Sequence record: NC_052663.1
Reading direction: 5' to 3' (one strand)
DNA from: Escherichia phage VEcB
DNA: 64,000 nt
The number at the start of each line of letters is the position of its first letter. Within the stretch, counting starts at the first letter, position 1. Under the pieces are notes generated by a model. The model was not told where the DNA came from. It did not search any database and was given only the letters and a program-made list of their open reading frames with translations. Of the stretch, positions 52,166-57,875 are shown piece after piece. A program made the translations under genes and the position numbers.

Positions 52166-53326
52166 TTAGTAAGAACGACCACCAAACACATACTCTGTGT
52201 AGTTTTTACGTTCTTTGTTTTTAATAACAACTTCAATGTTGTTACCTTTATCATCGGTGAACACAAAGTGATAACCGTCACCACCCATTGTACGGATGTG
52301 TTTTTCATCATACGTCAGCAAGATACGGTCTACACCCCAGTAGTAGTCACCTTCTTCATCTTTGTCTTCTACTGTAACGACCCCTTCCATTTCAGGAAGA
52401 TGTTCTTCTCCTAGCTTATGGTCTACAGCTACAACATAACGATTACCGCTAAACAAACCCTGTGCTGTCATACCGTCAATATCGGTATCTGCCGAAACAT
52501 CTCCTGTACGATCTACACCGTTGACTTTCAGAAGTTTAACTTCTTTTGCAGCATAGCGGTGTTCAGTAATACTGATACCCATTAATGCAAGTGCATCAGA
52601 GAATTTGTCATTAGGGTAACGGTTAAGTTCTTCTACTAATGACTGAACAATATCAAAGTTCAAGTCCACGGACAGATTATAAAGCGTTTCAAAATCTGGT
52701 AAAAAGGCTTTGTTCTCCAGATTTTTAGCCAGATAATCATCCATAGTAGCTTTAGGTAGTTTCTTATAGCTAAAACTGTAGAAAATACGGCTAGGACGAT
52801 TACGCAAAAATTCTGATACATAACCATCATTTTTAGTCAATACAAACAGCTTGTCATAACCACCAACACCATCCAGCAGGGTAAGCAAACCATCTTGTGC
52901 ATCTTTTTCAGCATACAGTTTATCAAATTCATCGATCATAATCATCACAGGTTGTGTGATTTTAGACATAAAGTTGATAAAGCCTTCACCATTAAAAGCA
53001 CTACCGATAGAAATAGTAGGAATACCCATTTCACGAAGAGCAGAAGACAGCATTTTAGCTTGCAAAGTTTTACCGCTACCTTTCGTACCCTCAAGGAGAA
53101 CACCTGTGTTTTTACCTTTGCGGCTAAGGAACGTCTTGATAATACGTTCTGATTTATCATCAGTATCACCGTATGTTACTGAAGGGACTTCCATATCGTT
53201 TTTAGGATACAGGAAGAACTCGCCACTTTGAGTAACACCTACACCAAAAGTTCCTGCTGGAATTTCTTCAATATCTGTACCAGACTTCTGACGCAGGAAG
53301 ATTTGATTGCCGAATACTGTAAACAT
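52166..53326 (-). CDS. AAA-family ATPase
   Basis: 386 aa; Walker A GTKGSGKT, Walker B VMIMIDEFD, sensor-1-like LFVLTKND. Confidence 0.5.
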   Translation of the reverse strand: MFTVFGNQIFLRQKSGTDIEEIPAGTFGVGVTQSGEFFLYPKNDMEVPSVTYGDTDDKSERIIKTFLSRKGKNTGVLLEGTKGSGKTLQAKMLSSALREMGIPTISIGSAFNGEGFINFMSKITQPVMIMIDEFDKLYAEKDAQDGLLTLLDGVGGYDKLFVLTKNDGYVSEFLRNRPSRIFYSFSYKKLPKATMDDYLAKNLENKAFLPDFETLYNLSVDLNFDIVQSLVEELNRYPNDKFSDALALMGISITEHRYAAKEVKLLKVNGVDRTGDVSADTDIDGMTAQGLFSGNRYVVAVDHKLGEEHLPEMEGVVTVEDKDEEGDYYWGVDRILLTYDEKHIRTMGGDGYHFVFTDDKGNNIEVVIKNKERKNYTEYVFGGRSY

Positions 53327-53346
53327 AGTTTTCTCCTCTATTTAAT

Positions 53347-53817
53347 TTAGTCAGATTCCCAAATGTTGTCTTTCTTAACCCACATTCGTTGATTATCTGA
53401 ACCTCTATAACGTTTCGTTGTTGGTTGAGTCATATCATACTTACCATCTATTACTATGTCAACCAGTTTTTTAATTTTCTCTGGAATTTCTTCAAAAAGA
53501 TATCCTGTATATAAGACAATATCTTTTTTGTTTCCAAAACAATCTCTTACCTTCTCAAGAACATACTCTACAGTGTCAATGTTCTCTTTGTCAAGAGGTT
53601 CACCACCTAAAACTGTTAATCCTTTAATGAAAGGTCGAGATAAATCTTCCAAGATAAGATCTAATGTTTCAGTAGTGAACTCTTGTCCGTAGTTATACGA
53701 CCAGGCTTTCTGGTTGAAGCAGCCACGGCAACCGTGGCTACAACCGCTCACCCACAAAGAGCATCTTACACCGTCACCGTTGAGCATGTCAACAGGTTCA
53801 TATCCGGCGTAATTCAA
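53347..53817 (-). CDS. nrdG: anaerobic ribonucleoside-triphosphate reductase activating protein (radical SAM)
   Basis: 156 aa; radical-SAM cluster motif CSHGCRGC near the N-terminus; directly downstream of and coupled to nrdD (ATGA overlap). Confidence 0.8.
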   Translation of the reverse strand: MNYAGYEPVDMLNGDGVRCSLWVSGCSHGCRGCFNQKAWSYNYGQEFTTETLDLILEDLSRPFIKGLTVLGGEPLDKENIDTVEYVLEKVRDCFGNKKDIVLYTGYLFEEIPEKIKKLVDIVIDGKYDMTQPTTKRYRGSDNQRMWVKKDNIWESD

Positions 53818-54755
53818 AAATGTTTCTCCCTTTCTAATACTTCTTGCATTTTACCTTTATTATAAGGGCGAGAGTTAGGGGCAGAAAGGTATCCTGACAC
53901 TCTTCTGATCACAGATATGGATTCTTCTTCATGATTACCGCAACTTGGACACTCGAAGCCTTTAGCCGTTGCTTTAAATTCACCATGAAAACCACATTTG
54001 AAACACTGATCTACAGGTTGGTTCACGCCAAAATAAGGAATTTTGTTGTAGGCATAATCTACAAGAGTTTCCAGTGCTTGCAAGTTATTTTTAAGGTTTG
54101 GTGTTTCTACATAACCTATGTTCCCACCATTACTAATTTGTGCAAAACCTTCCTCATAATCCCACTTTTGGAACGGGGTAGTGTGCATCCACACAGGTTG
54201 ATGGAAAGAGTTTGTCAAGTAGTCACGATCAATAGAACCAGGATAGCGATCATTTAATGCTTTGGCAAATTTATAGCACAAGGATTCTGCTGGTGTTCCA
54301 TACAAACTAAAAGCTAAACCAGAACGTTCTTTAAATGTGCCACAGATATCCTTCATATATTGAAGGATGTTTTTACCCATTGCTTTTGGATTGGTGTTAC
54401 CTGGGTATAAAATCTCCATAGCTTCTGCTAAACCTACATAACCGATACTAATAGAGGCATAACCACCTTCGAATAGTTTACCAATCTCTTCATTAGCTTC
54501 TAGTCGAGCTAAAGCCCCTTCCATAAACAATGTAGGGTTTTGAGATGCTTTGGTATGTCTAATACGGTTAACACGTAGCATATGTGCCTTATACGCCATC
54601 TCCATATGTTGTTCCAACAGTTCAGTAAATAAGATGCCCTTTTCACGGGACTCTGCTGCAATGATAGGTAAGTTTAAAGAAACTACGCCTAAGTTGAAAC
54701 GACCATCATATTTTTCACCTTGCTCTGTTGCATAGTATGACAAGAAACTTCTACA
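53814..54755 (-). CDS. nrdD: anaerobic ribonucleoside-triphosphate reductase, exon 2 (C-terminal part)
   Basis: Contains the C-terminal zinc ribbon CFKCG...CPSCG and glycyl-radical motif RRVSGYL; the frame upstream of Cys codon 54753..54755 has no ATG/RBS and continues the exon 1 frame after an approx. 770 nt insertion. Confidence 0.65.
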   Translation of the reverse strand, partial: CRSFLSYYATEQGEKYDGRFNLGVVSLNLPIIAAESREKGILFTELLEQHMEMAYKAHMLRVNRIRHTKASQNPTLFMEGALARLEANEEIGKLFEGGYASISIGYVGLAEAMEILYPGNTNPKAMGKNILQYMKDICGTFKERSGLAFSLYGTPAESLCYKFAKALNDRYPGSIDRDYLTNSFHQPVWMHTTPFQKWDYEEGFAQISNGGNIGYVETPNLKNNLQALETLVDYAYNKIPYFGVNQPVDQCFKCGFHGEFKATAKGFECPSCGNHEEESISVIRRVSGYLSAPNSRPYNKGKMQEVLEREKHF

Positions 54756-55525
54756 CATTATGTTCAAAGTGGCTCGCAAGGCCACTCCCGCACCATTACG
54801 TGCTGCTGCATGTCACCATGCAGATCAGACTATATCTTCATGCTTAAAGCATGTCTACCATTTGGGGTGTCATAGGCTTACACCCTACGCTGCTACATTC
54901 ATCACAGCTAGTCGTTAGGCATTTCGTAACAGAACTCATAATCATAATTATTTGGTGCTCCGCGCTTTAAGATTGCAGATATTCTTTTTCTGTCCAACCC
55001 TAAAGCGTCAGCACAACATCTCAGACTTTTAAAGTAAAAAACTTCACCAGTAGCCTTATGAGTAGCTTTTACACTGTGACACCTTGTGTAGAAAGCATAA
55101 CAGTTATTATCGTAACCCTCTTGCGTGTTGTCTGGACAAGATCCCCACTCAAGATTGTATACACTGTTGTCTTTCCTATTGTCACCTTTATGCTTCACAT
55201 AAGGTAAATTGTCTGGATTGGGTAAAAACGCTTCAGCTACAAGTCTGTGCACCCGAAAGCAAACAGTTTTCTTGTTTTTACGTATTCTGACAAGTTGGTA
55301 TCCTGTGTTTATTTCTTCCCACGAGCGAAGGATTCTTTCATCCTTATACCTGGTACAATAAACATTTCCAAGCTCGTCAATTTCATACCCTTCAAAATCA
55401 CGAATTTGTTTTCTCATATCAGTACCCCCCTTCTTCTGTGTTGGGAGTTCTGTTACGTTTAGCACGGGATTGTCTCGTTGAGAGTTCCCCCGTTTAGGCA
55501 GATTTTACATGAGCAGTTATAGTTT
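54756..55525 (-). mobile_element. putative group I intron interrupting nrdD, carrying an HNH homing endonuclease ORF
   Basis: An approx. 770 nt insertion separates two halves of one NrdD reading frame. Proposed 5' splice site follows a U (exon GGU) and the proposed last intron nt is G. Internal ORF is in a different frame with its own RBS. Boundaries inferred from recalled NrdD conservation around SMG/CRSFLS, not from a folded intron model. Confidence 0.5.
54908..55417 (-). CDS. HNH homing endonuclease (intron-encoded)
   Basis: Start set at ATG 55417 (AAGAAGGGGGG RBS); N-terminal FEGYEIDELGNVY (NUMOD4-like) and HNH region VHRLVAEAF..H.....N.....N. Confidence 0.6.
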   Translation of the reverse strand: MRKQIRDFEGYEIDELGNVYCTRYKDERILRSWEEINTGYQLVRIRKNKKTVCFRVHRLVAEAFLPNPDNLPYVKHKGDNRKDNSVYNLEWGSCPDNTQEGYDNNCYAFYTRCHSVKATHKATGEVFYFKSLRCCADALGLDRKRISAILKRGAPNNYDYEFCYEMPND

Positions 55526-56383
55526 ACCCATGCTTGTGACGCGACCATCTGAAGATCCTGTAACTTCTTTGTTTAAAGGTACAGAGATAAAATCAGGATA
55601 AATGCGTTCAGCACAACACTCCATTGCCAGTTGCTTCAAATCATAATTTGGATCGCCAGCTTTCATGTTAACACCATCTTCCAAGAAGAAGATAACTTTA
55701 GGAAACACAGGAGTTACCCTATCTTTTCCTAATCCTTGTTTGTGCACCATTAGGTAGTTTTTAGTGATCATTCTACCAAAAGCAGAGGTATCCAAACCTA
55801 AACTAATTGTTATAAAAGGTGACTGACCATTTACACTCATTAGGGTGTTCACCTGGTAGATTAAAGTTTGCATTGCATCATAGACCTGTTTATCTACCAT
55901 ACGCATAGCAATATCATAATCGCCAACATCGGCATATATTTTATTAAAACTTGCTTTAACGTATTGACTAAGCCCAGTATCAACATGTGCACAAGTTTGT
56001 CCACCATATTGGCTAGAAGCTACTGCTTGAATAATTTGAGTTAGGACAGTAGTTGCTACACCAATAGATTTTGGTTTTTCAATATGTGCATTACCAATAC
56101 GGAAACCGTTCTCAAGCATATCTTGGTAATTTACCAGGCAACAATTAGTTAAAGGTGAGAGTAAATAATCTAAATCGTGGATGTGACCATACCCACTTTT
56201 ATGCCATTCTGCTAAATCTTCAGGCAAAATATGGGTCATTGCCATGTGCTTGCTTAGGATACCTGCTAGTAAATCTCGGTGAGTATTAACAATCATTGCA
56301 GGTTTGTTTGCATTTTCACGAGTAAATTCTTCGGATGTTTGTTCGAGGAATCCGATTACATCCTCATATAGTTTTTGGGTCAT
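55526..56383 (-). CDS. nrdD: anaerobic ribonucleoside-triphosphate reductase, exon 1 (N-terminal part)
   Basis: Start set at ATG 56383 (GGAGGA RBS); conserved NrdD blocks HIHDLDY, LTNCCLV, PKSIGVAT, SQYGGQT, NGQSPF, DPNYDLKQLAMEC; the ORF runs on 2 codons into the intron before a stop. Confidence 0.65.
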
Positions 56384-56392
56384 TAATCCTCC

Positions 56393-56425
56393 GTGGAAAA
56401 TAAAAGCCAGCATTAAGCTGGCTTT
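56393..56425 (-). terminator. rho-independent terminator (minus strand) between gene 56473..57423 and nrdD
   Basis: 9 bp stem AAAGCCAGC/GCTGGCTTT followed on the minus strand by TATTTTCC. Confidence 0.5.
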
Positions 56426-56472
56426 AGGGTGGATCTTTATTTTAAATCTTTTTCGTAAGATTGTCCTTGATC

Positions 56473-57423
56473 TTAGTCAAGGTTTTTGGTAATACGTGTA
56501 CAACCGTCAGAAGTCAAACCGTCAACTTGAGTTTCCCAAGTGCCATGAATATTTCGGAACAATGTTGTTACACCTTTTGGTTCATTAATAATGATTGCCA
56601 TAACAAGTTTAGGATCGATAACAGACATAATCTTTTCCTCAATACCCTCTGTAATAACATTATTACGCACAATATTAATTACATCTTCTTGTACAGTAAG
56701 AGTGCTTACGTTCTTAAGAGTATATACCTGCTGCGTAGTGTAAATGATACGAACATAGCTTACAGAACGAGTAGGCACAGGTTTACGCGGTCGGCGAAAA
56801 CGTGGTTTTGGTGAAGATTCAGTCTTACTTTCATTTTTTGAATAATACTCCTCAAACAGTTTAGTAAATGTTTTTACATCAACTACAAACCGATCTTTCC
56901 TATATGGAGAATACTTATGTGCACCATTAATTCCACTGTTTTCATCAAAGAAAGTAATATTTTCTTCAGTTGAATATGTTAGATAATGGTCTGCATCTTT
57001 CCAATGTGGTTGTGGACAATGCGGATTACAAACGGAAAGCAGATAACTAATATCTTCTTCCGTTGCACTAGTATCCAGGAAACATGTATTATGCACAGAC
57101 AGTTCTACTTTTTCAACCATATCCTTTTCTTTATCCTCTTTGGCAAGATACTCAGTACGAATAATATCCAGAAAATCTTTAGGTGTTACTTCCATAAATG
57201 TATATTCAGGGTGAAGTTCCATATATTCAAATCCACAACCATCTAATTGCTGTAGGAAGTTAGGATAGAAGAACAAGTCATTAACACTATGAATCAGATC
57301 ATTGATTTCTGCTTCAGATGTGTAACCAAAACTCTTGTGAATTGCTTCATTAAGAATATGCAGGATACCCATCTCTTCTGCTGCTTTTTTAACTTCCAGT
57401 TTATTAGCGTAAAATGCAATCAT
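56473..57423 (-). CDS. hypothetical protein
   Basis: 316 aa ORF. Confidence 0.35.
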   Translation of the reverse strand: MIAFYANKLEVKKAAEEMGILHILNEAIHKSFGYTSEAEINDLIHSVNDLFFYPNFLQQLDGCGFEYMELHPEYTFMEVTPKDFLDIIRTEYLAKEDKEKDMVEKVELSVHNTCFLDTSATEEDISYLLSVCNPHCPQPHWKDADHYLTYSTEENITFFDENSGINGAHKYSPYRKDRFVVDVKTFTKLFEEYYSKNESKTESSPKPRFRRPRKPVPTRSVSYVRIIYTTQQVYTLKNVSTLTVQEDVINIVRNNVITEGIEEKIMSVIDPKLVMAIIINEPKGVTTLFRNIHGTWETQVDGLTSDGCTRITKNLD

Positions 57424-57440
57424 TATGTTCTCCTTCTAAA

Positions 57441-57875
57441 TTAGTTTAAAATTTCTTTGGCAATGGTAGAAGCAAGTTTTCCATCATATTGATTAGGATA
57501 CTCTGCTTTAAGGTGTTTCATCATATCTGGCATTTTCTTGCCTGTCAAGGCAAATTCTTCAGCAATCGCTCGAAGGTCATCTTCAGATAGCATTTCTGGT
57601 AAATATTTTTCCAGAGTGGTGATATCACGCATAGCTCGCTCACATTTGCTAATGGAAGCATTAACTTTCTTAAGTGAGTCTAGCTCCTCTTTAGCGTGTG
57701 CAATACCAATCTTAACAATGTTAATCATAATATCATCTTCTGATTTATTTAGATTTGCCTTTTGAGTACGAGCAAGGTCAAACTCACCAATAATATTAGT
57801 TAACAAAGCAAAAGCACCTTTATCGGTTGTACGTGCTAAGATACGATCTGCTTTCATTTGTGTCACAATAGACAT
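57441..57875 (-). CDS. GatB/YqeY-domain protein
   Basis: 144 aa helical protein whose length and pattern (KYLPEMLSEDDLRAIAEEFALTGKKMPDMMKHLKAEYPNQYDGKLASTIAKEIL) match the YqeY/GatB C-terminal domain family. Confidence 0.45.
   Translation of the reverse strand: MSIVTQMKADRILARTTDKGAFALLTNIIGEFDLARTQKANLNKSEDDIMINIVKIGIAHAKEELDSLKKVNASISKCERAMRDITTLEKYLPEMLSEDDLRAIAEEFALTGKKMPDMMKHLKAEYPNQYDGKLASTIAKEILN

Follow-up and report, generated by a model that had tools for sequence, protein, structure and literature searches.

A probable mobile group I intron of the T4 type, with an I-HmuI-like HNH endonuclease gene, in nrdD of Escherichia phage VEcB

The minus-strand segment 55525..54756 of Escherichia phage VEcB (NC_052663.1; positions refer to the window, the whole stretch of 64,000 nucleotides that was analysed) is very probably a mobile group I intron of the T4 type (IA2). 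It interrupts the gene for the anaerobic ribonucleotide reductase (RNR), nrdD, immediately 5' of the catalytic cysteine codon (SMG/CRSF; here and below a slash in such strings marks the junction), and the nrdDG operon is intact around it. The evidence comes from the anatomy of the locus, the restoration of the reading frame on excision, the conservation and covariation of the fold, a series of alleles among relatives, and a signature of horizontal transfer. The element is of an ordinary, textbook selfish type, and for phage phi92 the splicing of this same intron is already part of the public annotation.

Results

Alignment with the intron-less nrdD of phage Antha (PP925826) places the insertion exactly, as a clean gap of 770 nt between ...ATGGGT and TG(T/C)... 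in the nucleotide alignment, and so gives precise limits to the split of approximately 770 nt that had been proposed in an initial annotation of this DNA (Table 1). The two minus-strand ORFs that flank it had been read there as the N- and C-terminal halves of one reductase, and they do match consecutive parts of the Pfam NRDD profile, exon 1 at positions 1-263 and exon 2 at 264-562, with the profile continuous over the junction at 263/264; exon 2 also matches Gly_radical and includes the glycyl-radical domain. The exon 1 ORF called by program opens at 56413, and the ATG at 56383 is the start annotated in the relatives phi92 and Antha; read from this start, exon 1 encodes the same 286 residues with which Antha NrdD begins. 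Exon 2 opens with the Cys codon equivalent to Cys290 of T4 NrdD (SPMG/CRSFLS in the T4 alignment). The frames, already judged compatible, are indeed so: excision in silico yields a 599-aa NrdD identical to the contiguous Antha protein, with the conserved frame restored, and in the comparison with intron-less nrdD the absence of the insert is both precise and frame-restoring.

Reading of exon 1 is halted two codons into the intron by an in-frame UAA at 55519..55517, and in the homologues that were read an in-frame stop likewise lies 0-3 codons from the splice site. An intein is ruled out, since 770 nt is not a multiple of three, the stop comes two codons in, and the ORF within the insert has no intein motifs. 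Among intron-bearing alleles, nrdD shows 12-23 nucleotide differences and only 0-1 amino acid differences, and neither exon is frame-damaged; this imbalance argues for purifying selection on the spliced frame.

Table 1. Features of the VEcB nrdD locus, with positions in the window; a slash in the junction sequences marks the site of insertion.
Feature	Position	Strand	Details
Group I intron, IA2-type (predicted)	54756..55525	-	770 nt; Antha gap, RF00028, covariation
nrdD exon 1	55526..56383	-	286 codons, MTQKLY...VTSMG
nrdD exon 2	53814..54755	-	313 codons + stop
nrdG (activase)	53347..53817	-	Pfam Fer4_12 + Radical_SAM; directly downstream of nrdD
Predicted ligated-exon junction			RNA ...CAUGGGU/UGUAGAAG..., reading ...AUGGGU/UGUAGA...
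Spliced-type junction (DNA)			ATGGGT/TGTAGAAGT
Antha- or T4-type uninterrupted junction (DNA)			ATGGGT/TGCCGTAGC
Internal guide sequence GCUCAUGU	55507..55514	-	intron nt 12-19; 5' partner of P1 is the exon-1 end
L1 loop	55517..55522	-	contains P10 guide; stop UAA 55519..55517 overlaps
Ribozyme core 5' half	55445..55502	-	P3-5', P4/P5, P6-5', P6a-5'
P3-5'	55502..55497	-	core 5' half
P4/P5 hairpin domain	55493..55464	-	core 5' half
P6-5' + P6a-5' strand CGUAACAGAACUC	55463..55445	-	core 5' half
Hairpin at P6a tip	55420..55452	-	CAG.AACUCCC...GGGGGGU.ACUG; MFE -11.1 kcal/mol, z -2.8
Putative HNH homing endonuclease gene, I-HmuI-like	54908..55417	-	169 aa + stop; P6a loop
Ribozyme core 3' half	54756..54937	-	terminus ...CAUAAUG
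P6a-3' GAGUUCUGUUACG	54937..54925	-	core 3' half
P6-3'	54920..54919	-	core 3' half
P7-5' GACUA	54913..54909	-	core 3' half
P3-3' GGUAGA	54859..54854	-	core 3' half; P7.1, P7.2 precede
J8/7 + P7-3' UAGUC	54832..54828	-	core 3' half; P8 precedes
P9 (GUGA loop), P9.1, P9.2	3' of P7-3', before terminus	-	core 3' half
Exon-2 signature	54747..54753	-	four synonymous differences; UGUAGAAGU vs UGCCGUAGC in intron-less alleles

The putative self-splicing group I intron of the initial annotation gained in definition on comparative analysis, which supports P1 with its U.G wobble, helices P3-P9 together with the P3/P7 pseudoknot, and the terminal G, and by these features the insert is classed as a T4-type group I intron of subgroup IA2 with P7.1/P7.2. 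The Rfam check that had been suggested gave a match to RF00028 (39.3 bits, E 4e-8) that is under the cut-off of 50 and in which the 3' half alone aligns, the core being interrupted by the 510-nt ORF. The natural ORF-less alleles of phi92 (70.6 bits), pEC-M2929 (70.4) and 24-2-1 (79.8) all exceed that cut-off, and the T4 sunY intron scores 105; without its ORF, the VEcB intron differs from that of phi92 by zero substitutions and a single one-base indel in a G-run of the P6a loop. A scan of the entire 64-kb window at the Rfam gathering thresholds returned no match and a scan of it by E-value matched the nrdD intron alone, so there is no evidence of further Rfam-detectable introns in the 64 kb.

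To assess the fold, 75 pairs in P1, P3, P4, P5, P6, P6a, P7, P7.1, P7.2, P8, P9, P9.1 and P9.2 were scored in nine homologues. The proposed partners were paired in 94.4% of cells, as against 31-42% in slid-partner controls, and both-side (compensatory) changes were seen at 35 of the 75 pairs; shuffles equalled the observed covariation in 0/500 cases on four of five measures and in 1/500 on the fifth. RNAalifold independently recovers every nested helix, and the minimum free energy (MFE) fold of the phi92 copy recovers the nested helices as well (z -4.3). The helices of the core 5' half, from P3-5' through P6a-5', are 97-100% paired with compensatory changes and are recovered independently both by RNAalifold and by single-sequence MFE folding, and the core helices are all intact in the VEcB copy. 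Subgroup IA, as reportedly defined by Michel and Westhof in 1990, has two additional hairpins, P7.1 and P7.2, lying between P7-5' and P3-3'. Both are present here, with compensatory changes in 4/4 pairs of P7.1 and with P7.2 kept through G-C to G-U changes. A P2 helix was looked for in the intron and is lacking, just as it is in the T4 copy of the alignment. Compared with the T4 nrdD (sunY) intron, the core shows 70.5% identity over 78% of its length (query positions 12-230), with the 3' half about 70% identical to the sunY core, the 3'-terminal P9.2/UGAACA motif included.

The 5' splice site follows U55526, and the insert ends with the terminal (omega) G54756, so the junction bases are those expected of group I introns, as had been pointed out. 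The guide GCUCAUGU pairs with the last eight bases of exon 1, GCAUGGGU (55533..55526), as P1, with 8/8 pairs in VEcB and 6-8/8 in the nine homologues; the U55526.G55514 wobble that closes P1 at the splice site is invariant in all nine, and position -7 carries a compensatory C-G to G-C swap in L016 and JSE. The candidate P10 pairs CUAUA (55522..55518, intron nt 4-8) with UGUAG of exon 2 (54755..54751); in VEcB it has 5 bp only and is offset 3 nt from the guide. Its two strands co-vary among homologues: GAUUGGCA with UGCCGAUC in F99, CUCUAUA with UGUAGAG in L016, and UUACG with UGUAG in L014.

The 169-aa protein encoded in the P6a loop appears, on sequence comparison, to be related over its whole length to the HNH homing endonuclease I-HmuI, which is encoded by the DNA-polymerase intron of Bacillus phage SPO1 (PDB 1U3E; E 8.3e-9, residues 3-166 against 4-172), and it matches PHROG 59 'HNH endonuclease' at E 1.9e-34. 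These two matches bear out the HNH half of the earlier label NUMOD4/HNH; the other half needs a small correction, as the Pfam search reported no NUMOD4 in the 169-aa protein, the domain being found in relatives. Relatives at 35-55% identity carry PF07463, PF07453, PF13392 and PF22083. In VEcB the Pfam scores fall slightly under their curated cut-offs for both HNH_3 (22.0 bits vs 24.8) and I-HmuI_NUMOD-like (25.4 bits vs 27), for which reason endonuclease activity is not assured, and an NCBIfam search with the endonuclease gave no match. His76, Asn88 and Asn97 of the HNH motif are invariant among 24 aligned relatives. Just before the catalytic His, VEcB has Lys where I-HmuI has Asp and most relatives have Asn; in I-HmuI this Asp is reportedly a metal ligand, according to the crystal-structure paper.

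The endonuclease gene is tightly fitted into the ribozyme, its last 10 codons (EFCYEMPND and the stop) doubling as P6a-3', J6/7 and P7-5'. It has its own ribosome-binding site (RBS), as had been noticed, with an A/G-rich Shine-Dalgarno sequence, GAAGGGGGG, that ends 7 nt before the ATG at 55417. The statement that it lies in another frame is right for exon 2 but not for exon 1 (56413-55465 = 948 = 3x316), from which it is separated by stops. The predicted hairpin at the tip of P6a would sequester the Shine-Dalgarno sequence; its 5' arm overlaps the distal P6a 5' strand, so that the two pairings are alternatives. Equivalent hairpins in A140 (ACUCCU with AGGAGU; -11.7, z -3.5) and L013 (CUCCUU with AAGGAG) keep the pairing through both-side changes. 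A sigma-70 promoter/terminator scan of 53300-57500 found 16 against 13.3 expected in shuffles, no enrichment, and placed no promoter before the endonuclease ORF; it thus lends no support to a late promoter of its own for this gene, such as the T4 intron ORFs have.

Homologous introns with the endonuclease occur at the same site in Stephanstirmvirinae, Vequintavirinae, the T4-like phage JSE, Vibrio phage F99 and metagenomic contigs, the last of which include distant endonuclease homologues of 48-76% identity. The copies of lower similarity were retrieved through the protein database and by looking up contigs. When the IMG/VR viral contigs were searched with the endonuclease as query, one locus only was returned, an ORF-less remnant. 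Among Justusliebigvirus records, about 31 are intron-less, 19 are ORF-less and 3 are full. The ORF-less alleles represent two independent deletions (279 and 290 nt); in phi92 (NC_023693), at the same site, 491 nt with the endonuclease ORF are lost and 279 nt are left, compared with the full 770 nt of VEcB. The full form is shared within the genus only with arall, phiWec187 and SD2, in whose records two NrdD genes and a hypothetical protein or 'endonuclease' are annotated. The RefSeq record of phi92 joins both exons as CDS PHI92_gene_192A, 'spliced variant', and annotates the halves separately as well.

The VEcB intron is 99.4% identical to the copy in Phapecoctavirus nepoznato, while the exons of the two genera are about 75% identical, and the high identity falls off from 7 nt upstream (first mismatch 55532) and from 39 nt downstream (first mismatch 54717) of the intron. 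Four of the 14 nrdD differences from Antha are at 54753, 54752, 54750 and 54747, the next nearest being at 55625 and 54192, and nepoznato, 24-2-1, A140 and JSE carry the resulting UGUAGAAGU after their introns too. We interpret this exon-2 signature, which travels with the intron, as a probable co-conversion tract. A role in strengthening P10 was considered and dropped, since exchanging the VEcB exon 2 for the intron-less one costs P10 only about 1 kcal/mol; co-conversion, or immunity of the target site, is the simpler reading. From the 99.4% identity across genera, the sharp borders, the exon-2 signature and the coexisting alleles, we infer that the intron is mobile.

Discussion

By the chemistry of group I introns, splicing would proceed as follows. 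The nrdD-nrdG transcript would carry the intron, with ribosomes on exon 1 halting at the UAA two codons in, and the RNA would fold into P1 (GCAUGGGU with GCUCAUGU) and P3-P9 with the P3/P7 pseudoknot, P7.1/P7.2 and P9.1/P9.2. Free guanosine, once held by P7, would attack 3' of U55526, the U of the P1 wobble; the terminal G54756 would then take its place and the exons would be ligated, yielding an mRNA for the 599-aa NrdD. Homing, to judge from the enzyme family and the signatures described above, would depend on the I-HmuI-like HNH enzyme made from the P6a loop, with its Shine-Dalgarno sequence locked in a hairpin. I-HmuI nicks one strand, and the VEcB enzyme presumably nicks or cuts the intron-less nrdD of co-infecting phages close to the insertion site, after which repair off the intron-bearing copy would install the intron along with a few exon-2 bases. 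A literature search found no paper reporting splicing or cleavage for the VEcB nrdD intron.

A first alternative keeps the splicing and gives up the homing: the HNH ORF would no longer be an active homing endonuclease, being on its way to loss or kept for another role, and the intron would now be inherited vertically only. The Lys that stands before the catalytic His in place of Asp or Asn and the sub-threshold Pfam domain scores point this way, as does the predominance in Justusliebigvirus of ORF-less over ORF-bearing records (19 vs 3), the loss having arisen at least two times. We nevertheless think it unlikely. Between two genera with exons of about 75% identity the ORF has stayed intact and 99.4-100% identical, which implies recent lateral spread of exactly this version; the Lys variant is common to the relatives P0002 and P0003 (76-89% identical) and to JSE, all of them likewise intact at the same site; and the three HNH residues are invariant.

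The lack of an ATG or RBS for the downstream half, as stated in the initial annotation, does not hold in full. An AUG in frame with exon 2 is formed by the last three intron bases (54758-54756), and upstream of exon 2 a GTG (54785) and a TTG (54779) stand directly 3' of a GGAG that the phi92 annotators labelled as an RBS, alongside the separate CDS halves. Separate translation of the C-terminal half is therefore formally possible, and the insert might be an endonuclease cassette between genes in pieces, with two NrdD polypeptides, an N-half ending ...SMGKL and a C-half starting at the GTG, the TTG or the AUG, that assemble without splicing. There is a precedent in Aeromonas phage Aeh1, whose NrdA is split by mobE and works as two chains (PMC3653736, PMC7344957), and purifying selection on both halves would be equally expected. 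We regard such an arrangement as very improbable, however, as it leaves unexplained both a conserved, co-varying 279-nt ribozyme core that has outlasted the deletion of the endonuclease and a guide that pairs with both exon ends. The GGAG itself sits at the foot of P9.2, and the stretch around it is conserved in T4 sunY as well as in every homologue, which suggests that it is there for reasons of RNA structure. We also take it, from the structure of class III RNRs, that a break in NrdD would fall at the loop of the catalytic Cys. The Aeh1 locus is likewise an RNR gene broken by an HNH endonuclease gene, but it has no ribozyme, whereas the VEcB ORF is surrounded by a conserved one that is kept after ORF loss. 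Least probable of all is an nrdD pseudogene with a dead or splicing-defective intron, tolerated through the aerobic RNR or the host; some relatives do lack nrdDG altogether (Certrevirus, PMC7344957), but the alleles show 0-1 amino acid differences for their 12-23 nucleotide differences, with both exons free of frame damage, and the core, with all helices intact, matches that of the widely retained phi92 allele without a single substitution.

The mobile group I intron that we favour is most readily compared with the T4 nrdD (sunY) intron and its endonuclease I-TevII, which reside in the same host gene. Both introns are of type IA with P7.1/P7.2, lack P2 and have a P9 with a GUGA loop; the cores correspond helix by helix, the 3' termini are homologous (P9.2 and UGAACA..UG), and the same guide, GCUCAUG(U), pairs with an exon-1 end that reads AUGRGU. 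Both also have an in-frame stop just inside the intron and an RBS of the intron ORF within a hairpin. They differ in the site of insertion, which in T4 follows nt 538 (codon 180, AYE/YEV) and in VEcB precedes the Cys290-equivalent codon, where the T4 sequence is uninterrupted (ATGGGT/TGCCGTAGT). They differ as well in the endonuclease, a GIY-YIG enzyme of 258 aa in T4 vs an HNH protein of 169 aa in VEcB, and in the place of its ORF, which in T4 is 3' of P9.1 and in VEcB is in the P6a loop, overlapping P6a-3'/P7-5'.

The VEcB enzyme resembles instead I-HmuI, with which it is homologous over its full length, sharing a NUMOD4-like N-terminal beta segment, an HNH core and a C-terminal helix-turn-helix module; I-HmuI is also encoded in a phage group I intron, though its host gene and target differ. 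The layout of the ORF has parallels in the T4 td intron with I-TevI and the RB3 nrdB intron with I-TevIII, in which the ORF is looped out of the P6 region, shares its 3' end with the core and has a sequestered RBS, and which home with co-conversion of flanking exon sequence (PMC2988022). These introns are in other genes, and I-TevI is a GIY-YIG enzyme; I-TevIII is described as an HNH enzyme with zinc fingers that acts as a dimer (PMC1865063).

For annotation, nrdD in VEcB and in its closest relatives, arall, phiWec187, SD2 and nepoznato, should be given as one spliced gene with an intron-encoded HNH homing endonuclease, rather than as two 'NrdD-like' genes and a hypothetical protein. The locus also illustrates that Rfam screens at the gathering threshold miss ORF-containing introns, which here scored 39 bits vs 70-80 for the ORF-less alleles. 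More broadly, it offers a natural illustration, not new in principle, of the homing-endonuclease life cycle, with invasion across genera accompanied by exon co-conversion, repeated loss of the endonuclease, and coexisting intron-less alleles. Set beside the T4 nrdD intron, it also illustrates how a ribozyme, its endonuclease and its insertion site may evolve independently, which is again not new in principle.

A further reading, which we offer tentatively as a possibility that we do not favour, is that the T4 and VEcB nrdD introns are one ribozyme lineage at two sites, codon 180 and the Cys290 codon, which moved by reverse-splicing transposition and then captured different endonucleases, an HNH enzyme in P6a in VEcB vs a GIY-YIG enzyme after P9 in T4. 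The shared guide and the matching AUGRGU ends of exon 1 are the traces to be expected if an intron had reverse-spliced into a site complementary to its guide. If true, the T4/VEcB pair would document a natural case of ectopic movement of a group I intron within a phage gene, and it would provide a tractable system for such movement because close relatives with intron-less, ORF-less and full alleles are all at hand.

The nrdD exons and their junction

Insert boundaries were set by aligning the window with three relatives. The nrdD gene of the intron-less relative Antha is continuous, and the window adds exactly 770 bases between ...AGCATGGGT and TGT..., at 55525..54756 on the minus strand, which carries all of the nrdD-intron features described here and in the table; the interval proposed in the initial annotation was thus exact. 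Joining the exons precisely restores the frame, giving 1800 nt and a product that equals Antha NrdD in 599/599 residues. Positions 1-263 of the Pfam NRDD profile match the N-terminal ORF; the C-terminal ORF takes positions 264-562 and also has the glycyl-radical domain, confirming that the two are halves of one anaerobic ribonucleotide reductase. The exon junction is SMG|CRSF, its Cys aligned with Cys290 of T4 NrdD, which we take to be the catalytic thiyl-radical cysteine. Intron-bearing alleles differ in the spliced frame by 12-23 nt, yet by 0-1 aa, so nrdD has been kept functional.

Coordinates of nrdD, its insert and neighboring features in the window
Feature	Position	Strand	Source or remark
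316-aa ORF, directly 5' of nrdD	56473-57423	-
Terminator-like hairpin	56403-56425	-	AAAGCCAGC-TTAAT-GCTGGCTTT and T-run
N-terminal NrdD ORF	56413..55517	-	ORF listing
nrdD exon 1	56383..55526	-
185-codon ORF inside insert	55465..54908	-	ORF listing
ORF deletion region, P6a loop	55420-54938	-	phi92 vs pEC-M2929-1AR.1
HNH endonuclease ORF, 169 aa	ATG at 55417	-	Shine-Dalgarno GAAGGGGGG 7 nt before ATG
C-terminal NrdD ORF	54785..53814	-	ORF listing; nrdG next
nrdD exon 2	54755..53814	-

Escherichia phage arall matches the region at 99.0% identity, and phi92 and other Justusliebigvirus genomes (Stephanstirmvirinae) do so at ~99%. Because the mechanical ORF start at 56413 lies within the terminator-like hairpin that separates the 316-aa ORF from the nrdD start, ATG 56383 is favored as the true start. 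The 316-aa ORF is called 'ribonucleotide reductase' in the RefSeq records of phi92 and Antha and 'hypothetical protein' in the original notes.

A predicted group I ribozyme core

Nine homologues (from the window, A140, phi92, pEC-M2929, 24-2-1, Vibrio phage F99, T4 and two metagenomic copies) were aligned structurally, with ORF bodies taken out and 10 nt per exon retained. Helices P1, P3, P4, P5, P6, P6a, P7, P7.1, P7.2, P8, P9, P9.1 and P9.2 were drawn from the window sequence, P7 being pseudoknotted with P3. Standard pairs fill 94.4% of 644 cells, as opposed to 31-42% when the 3' partners are slid by 1-3 columns, and 35 of the 75 pairs show changes on both sides; the observed values were reached by 0/500 shuffles on four of five measures and by 1/500 on the fifth. 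RNAalifold, which was not given the drawn structure, recovered every nested helix and lengthened P1 by a covarying A-U/U-A pair spanning the splice site, and the minimum free energy fold of the phi92 copy alone has the same helices (z -4.3).

In P1, exon GCAUGGGU pairs with the guide GCUCAUGU (intron nt 12-19). The initial annotation had placed the junction after a U with a G at the intron end, and the cleavage-site U.G wobble is indeed invariant and the last intron base is G. Position -7 of P1 is swapped from C-G to G-C in JSE and another carrier of the intron (L016), and P10, the pairing of the L1 loop with the first exon 2 bases, co-varies (8 bp in F99, 7 bp in L016, 5 bp in the carrier L014 and 5 bp in the window). 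A UAA two codons into the intron ends the exon-1 translation frame, and similar in-frame stops occur 0-3 codons into the intron in the homologues read.

No Rfam match was found within the window at gathering thresholds, and a local scan placed RF00028, the group I intron family, at 54913..54806 (39.3 bits, E 4e-8), the score falling short of the cut-off because the match is confined to the part 3' of the ORF. Phi92 provides a natural control: its ORF-less insert is that of the window minus 491 nt (279 nt left), the shared sequence has no substitutions, and it scores 70.6 bits (E 3e-17, cut-off 50). The ORF-less introns of pEC-M2929-1AR.1 (290 nt) and Avunavirus 24-2-1 reach 70.4 and 79.8 bits; in six other genomes, all copies with the ORF stay at 33-39 bits. 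Taken together, the sequence comparisons argue that the group I interpretation in the initial annotation is right and the finding real.

The nearest characterized ribozyme relative is the T4 nrdD (sunY) intron, which itself scores 105 bits on RF00028 and is 70.5% identical to the core over 78% of its length. This similarity and the P7.1 and P7.2 hairpins between P7 and P3' assign the predicted ribozyme to subgroup IA2. The T4 intron follows codon 180 and carries the GIY-YIG enzyme I-TevII 3' of P9.1, whereas that of the window lies at the Cys290-equivalent codon with an HNH gene in the P6a loop; T4's own Cys290 site is empty (ATGGGT|TGCCGTAGT). The two introns share their guide, and exon 1 ends in AUGRGU in each, a weak 6-nt match that hints at movement between nrdD sites by guide complementarity.

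The predicted endonuclease ORF and its loss

The initial annotation had described a NUMOD4/HNH gene with its own ribosome-binding site. The HNH identity and the Shine-Dalgarno stand: the 169-aa product matches PHROG 59 (HNH endonuclease, E 2e-34) and can be aligned over its full length with the SPO1 homing endonuclease I-HmuI (PDB 1U3E, E 8e-9). The Pfam HNH_3 and I-HmuI_NUMOD-like matches are slightly below cut-off; NUMOD4, NUMOD1, HNH_3 or NUMOD-like domains are present in 613 database relatives. His76, Asn88 and Asn97 are invariant in 24 aligned relatives; just before the catalytic-motif His, the clade of this endonuclease has Lys where most relatives have Asn and I-HmuI has Asp.

Two other details required correction. 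The ORF, placed earlier in another frame, is in frame with exon 1 in the window copy, with stop codons between, and the downstream nrdD half, said to have no start or ribosome-binding site of its own, is preceded by an AUG in its frame, formed by the final three bases of the intron, and by GTG/TTG behind GGAG. The G-run in the endonuclease Shine-Dalgarno (55424-55429) has 6 G here and 5 G in arall, phi92 and nepoznato; with the sixth G the intron is 770 nt long instead of 769, and the ORF shares the frame of exon 1. Either a true polymorphism or a sequencing difference in the homopolymer could account for this.

The P6a loop that houses the ORF is closed by a 13-bp long-range helix (CGUAACAGAACUC with GAGUUCUGUUACG). 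The final ten codons (EFCYEMPND and stop) double as P6a-3', J6/7 and the P7 5' strand, which explains the conserved ...YEMPND C-terminus of relatives. The Shine-Dalgarno is held in a hairpin (-11.1 kcal/mol, z -2.8) whose pairing is kept by compensatory changes in A140 and a further carrier (L013), and a resembling translational control is known for T4 intron endonucleases (PMC2988022).

The ORF was deleted at least two times independently, as the phi92 (279-nt) and pEC-M2929-1AR.1 (290-nt) remnants differ in their breakpoints, that of phi92 lying at a CTG microhomology. Both natural deletions spare the 3' codons that double as P6a/P7 core. The Justusliebigvirus records divide into roughly 31 without the intron, 19 with its ORF-less form and 3 with the full element; the full ORF is present in 27 records of the phage collection.

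Indirect signatures of mobility

The intron of Phapecoctavirus nepoznato has 5 differences over 770 nt (99.4% identity), and its flanking nrdD exons are ~75% identical, the collapse of identity setting in 7 nt before the intron (first mismatch 55532) and 39 nt after it (54717). Four of the 14 differences between Antha and window nrdD are synonymous and lie at exon 2 +3, +4, +6 and +9 (UGUAGAAGU vs UGCCGUAGC), the nearest others being 99 nt upstream and 555 nt downstream. Nepoznato, 24-2-1, A140 and the T4-like phage JSE all have the identical signature beside the intron. Homing with co-conversion would carry exon-2 bases along with the intron, and such a signature is what it would leave, as indirect evidence of mobility.

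Homologous units of intron and endonuclease occur at the same nrdD site in Vequintavirus, Avunavirus, Krischvirus JSE and Vibrio phage F99. Three metagenomic contigs also have one there, with endonucleases only 49-76% identical. The uninterrupted T4 Cys290 site (CCGATGGGT|TGCCGTAGTTTCTTG) is near-identical to the intron-less Justusliebigvirus site of Antha. By this resemblance, T4-type phages would be possible targets of the predicted endonuclease, and JSE carries the intron there.

Related records

The nrdD gene of 24-2-1 (OK181862) has a second interruption of ~260 nt (2233-2495) near codon 445 (...GTPAESLCY...). Motifs resembling a group I P7 (AACGACUAU ... GAUAUAGUCUAG) lie within it, Rfam gave no match over it at E<1e-4, and we suspect a putative second, different intron. 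The nrdD gene of F99 (OZ196423, 1-3300) seems to be broken up in several places: the homologous intron with its HNH gene occupies the Cys site, another HNH endonuclease gene precedes a truncated N-terminal part, and the frame apparently breaks at 2905/2906. Records MG065639-MG065690 ('UNVERIFIED: Campylobacter phage A140, A145, C3 ...') are labelled as Campylobacter jejuni phages and, in the nrdD region, match Justusliebigvirus or Vequintavirus genomes from E. coli at ~99% identity. The host label is probably wrong, and would inflate the apparent host range in database summaries.

A literature search found no paper on splicing or cleavage of the nrdD Cys-site intron. HNH-bearing introns in other genes of related Vequintavirinae splice, as seen by RT-PCR (PMC7344957). 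In the RefSeq record of phi92 the exons are already joined, under the name 'spliced variant'; several Vequintavirus records label the ORF an HNH homing endonuclease, and the JSE record has the same nrdD split and a 'Homing endonuclease'. Its predicted features make this an ordinary mobile group I intron of the T4 type, one that had already been annotated; its worth is in correct annotation and as a clear illustration, in nature, of the homing cycle rather than as a discovery.
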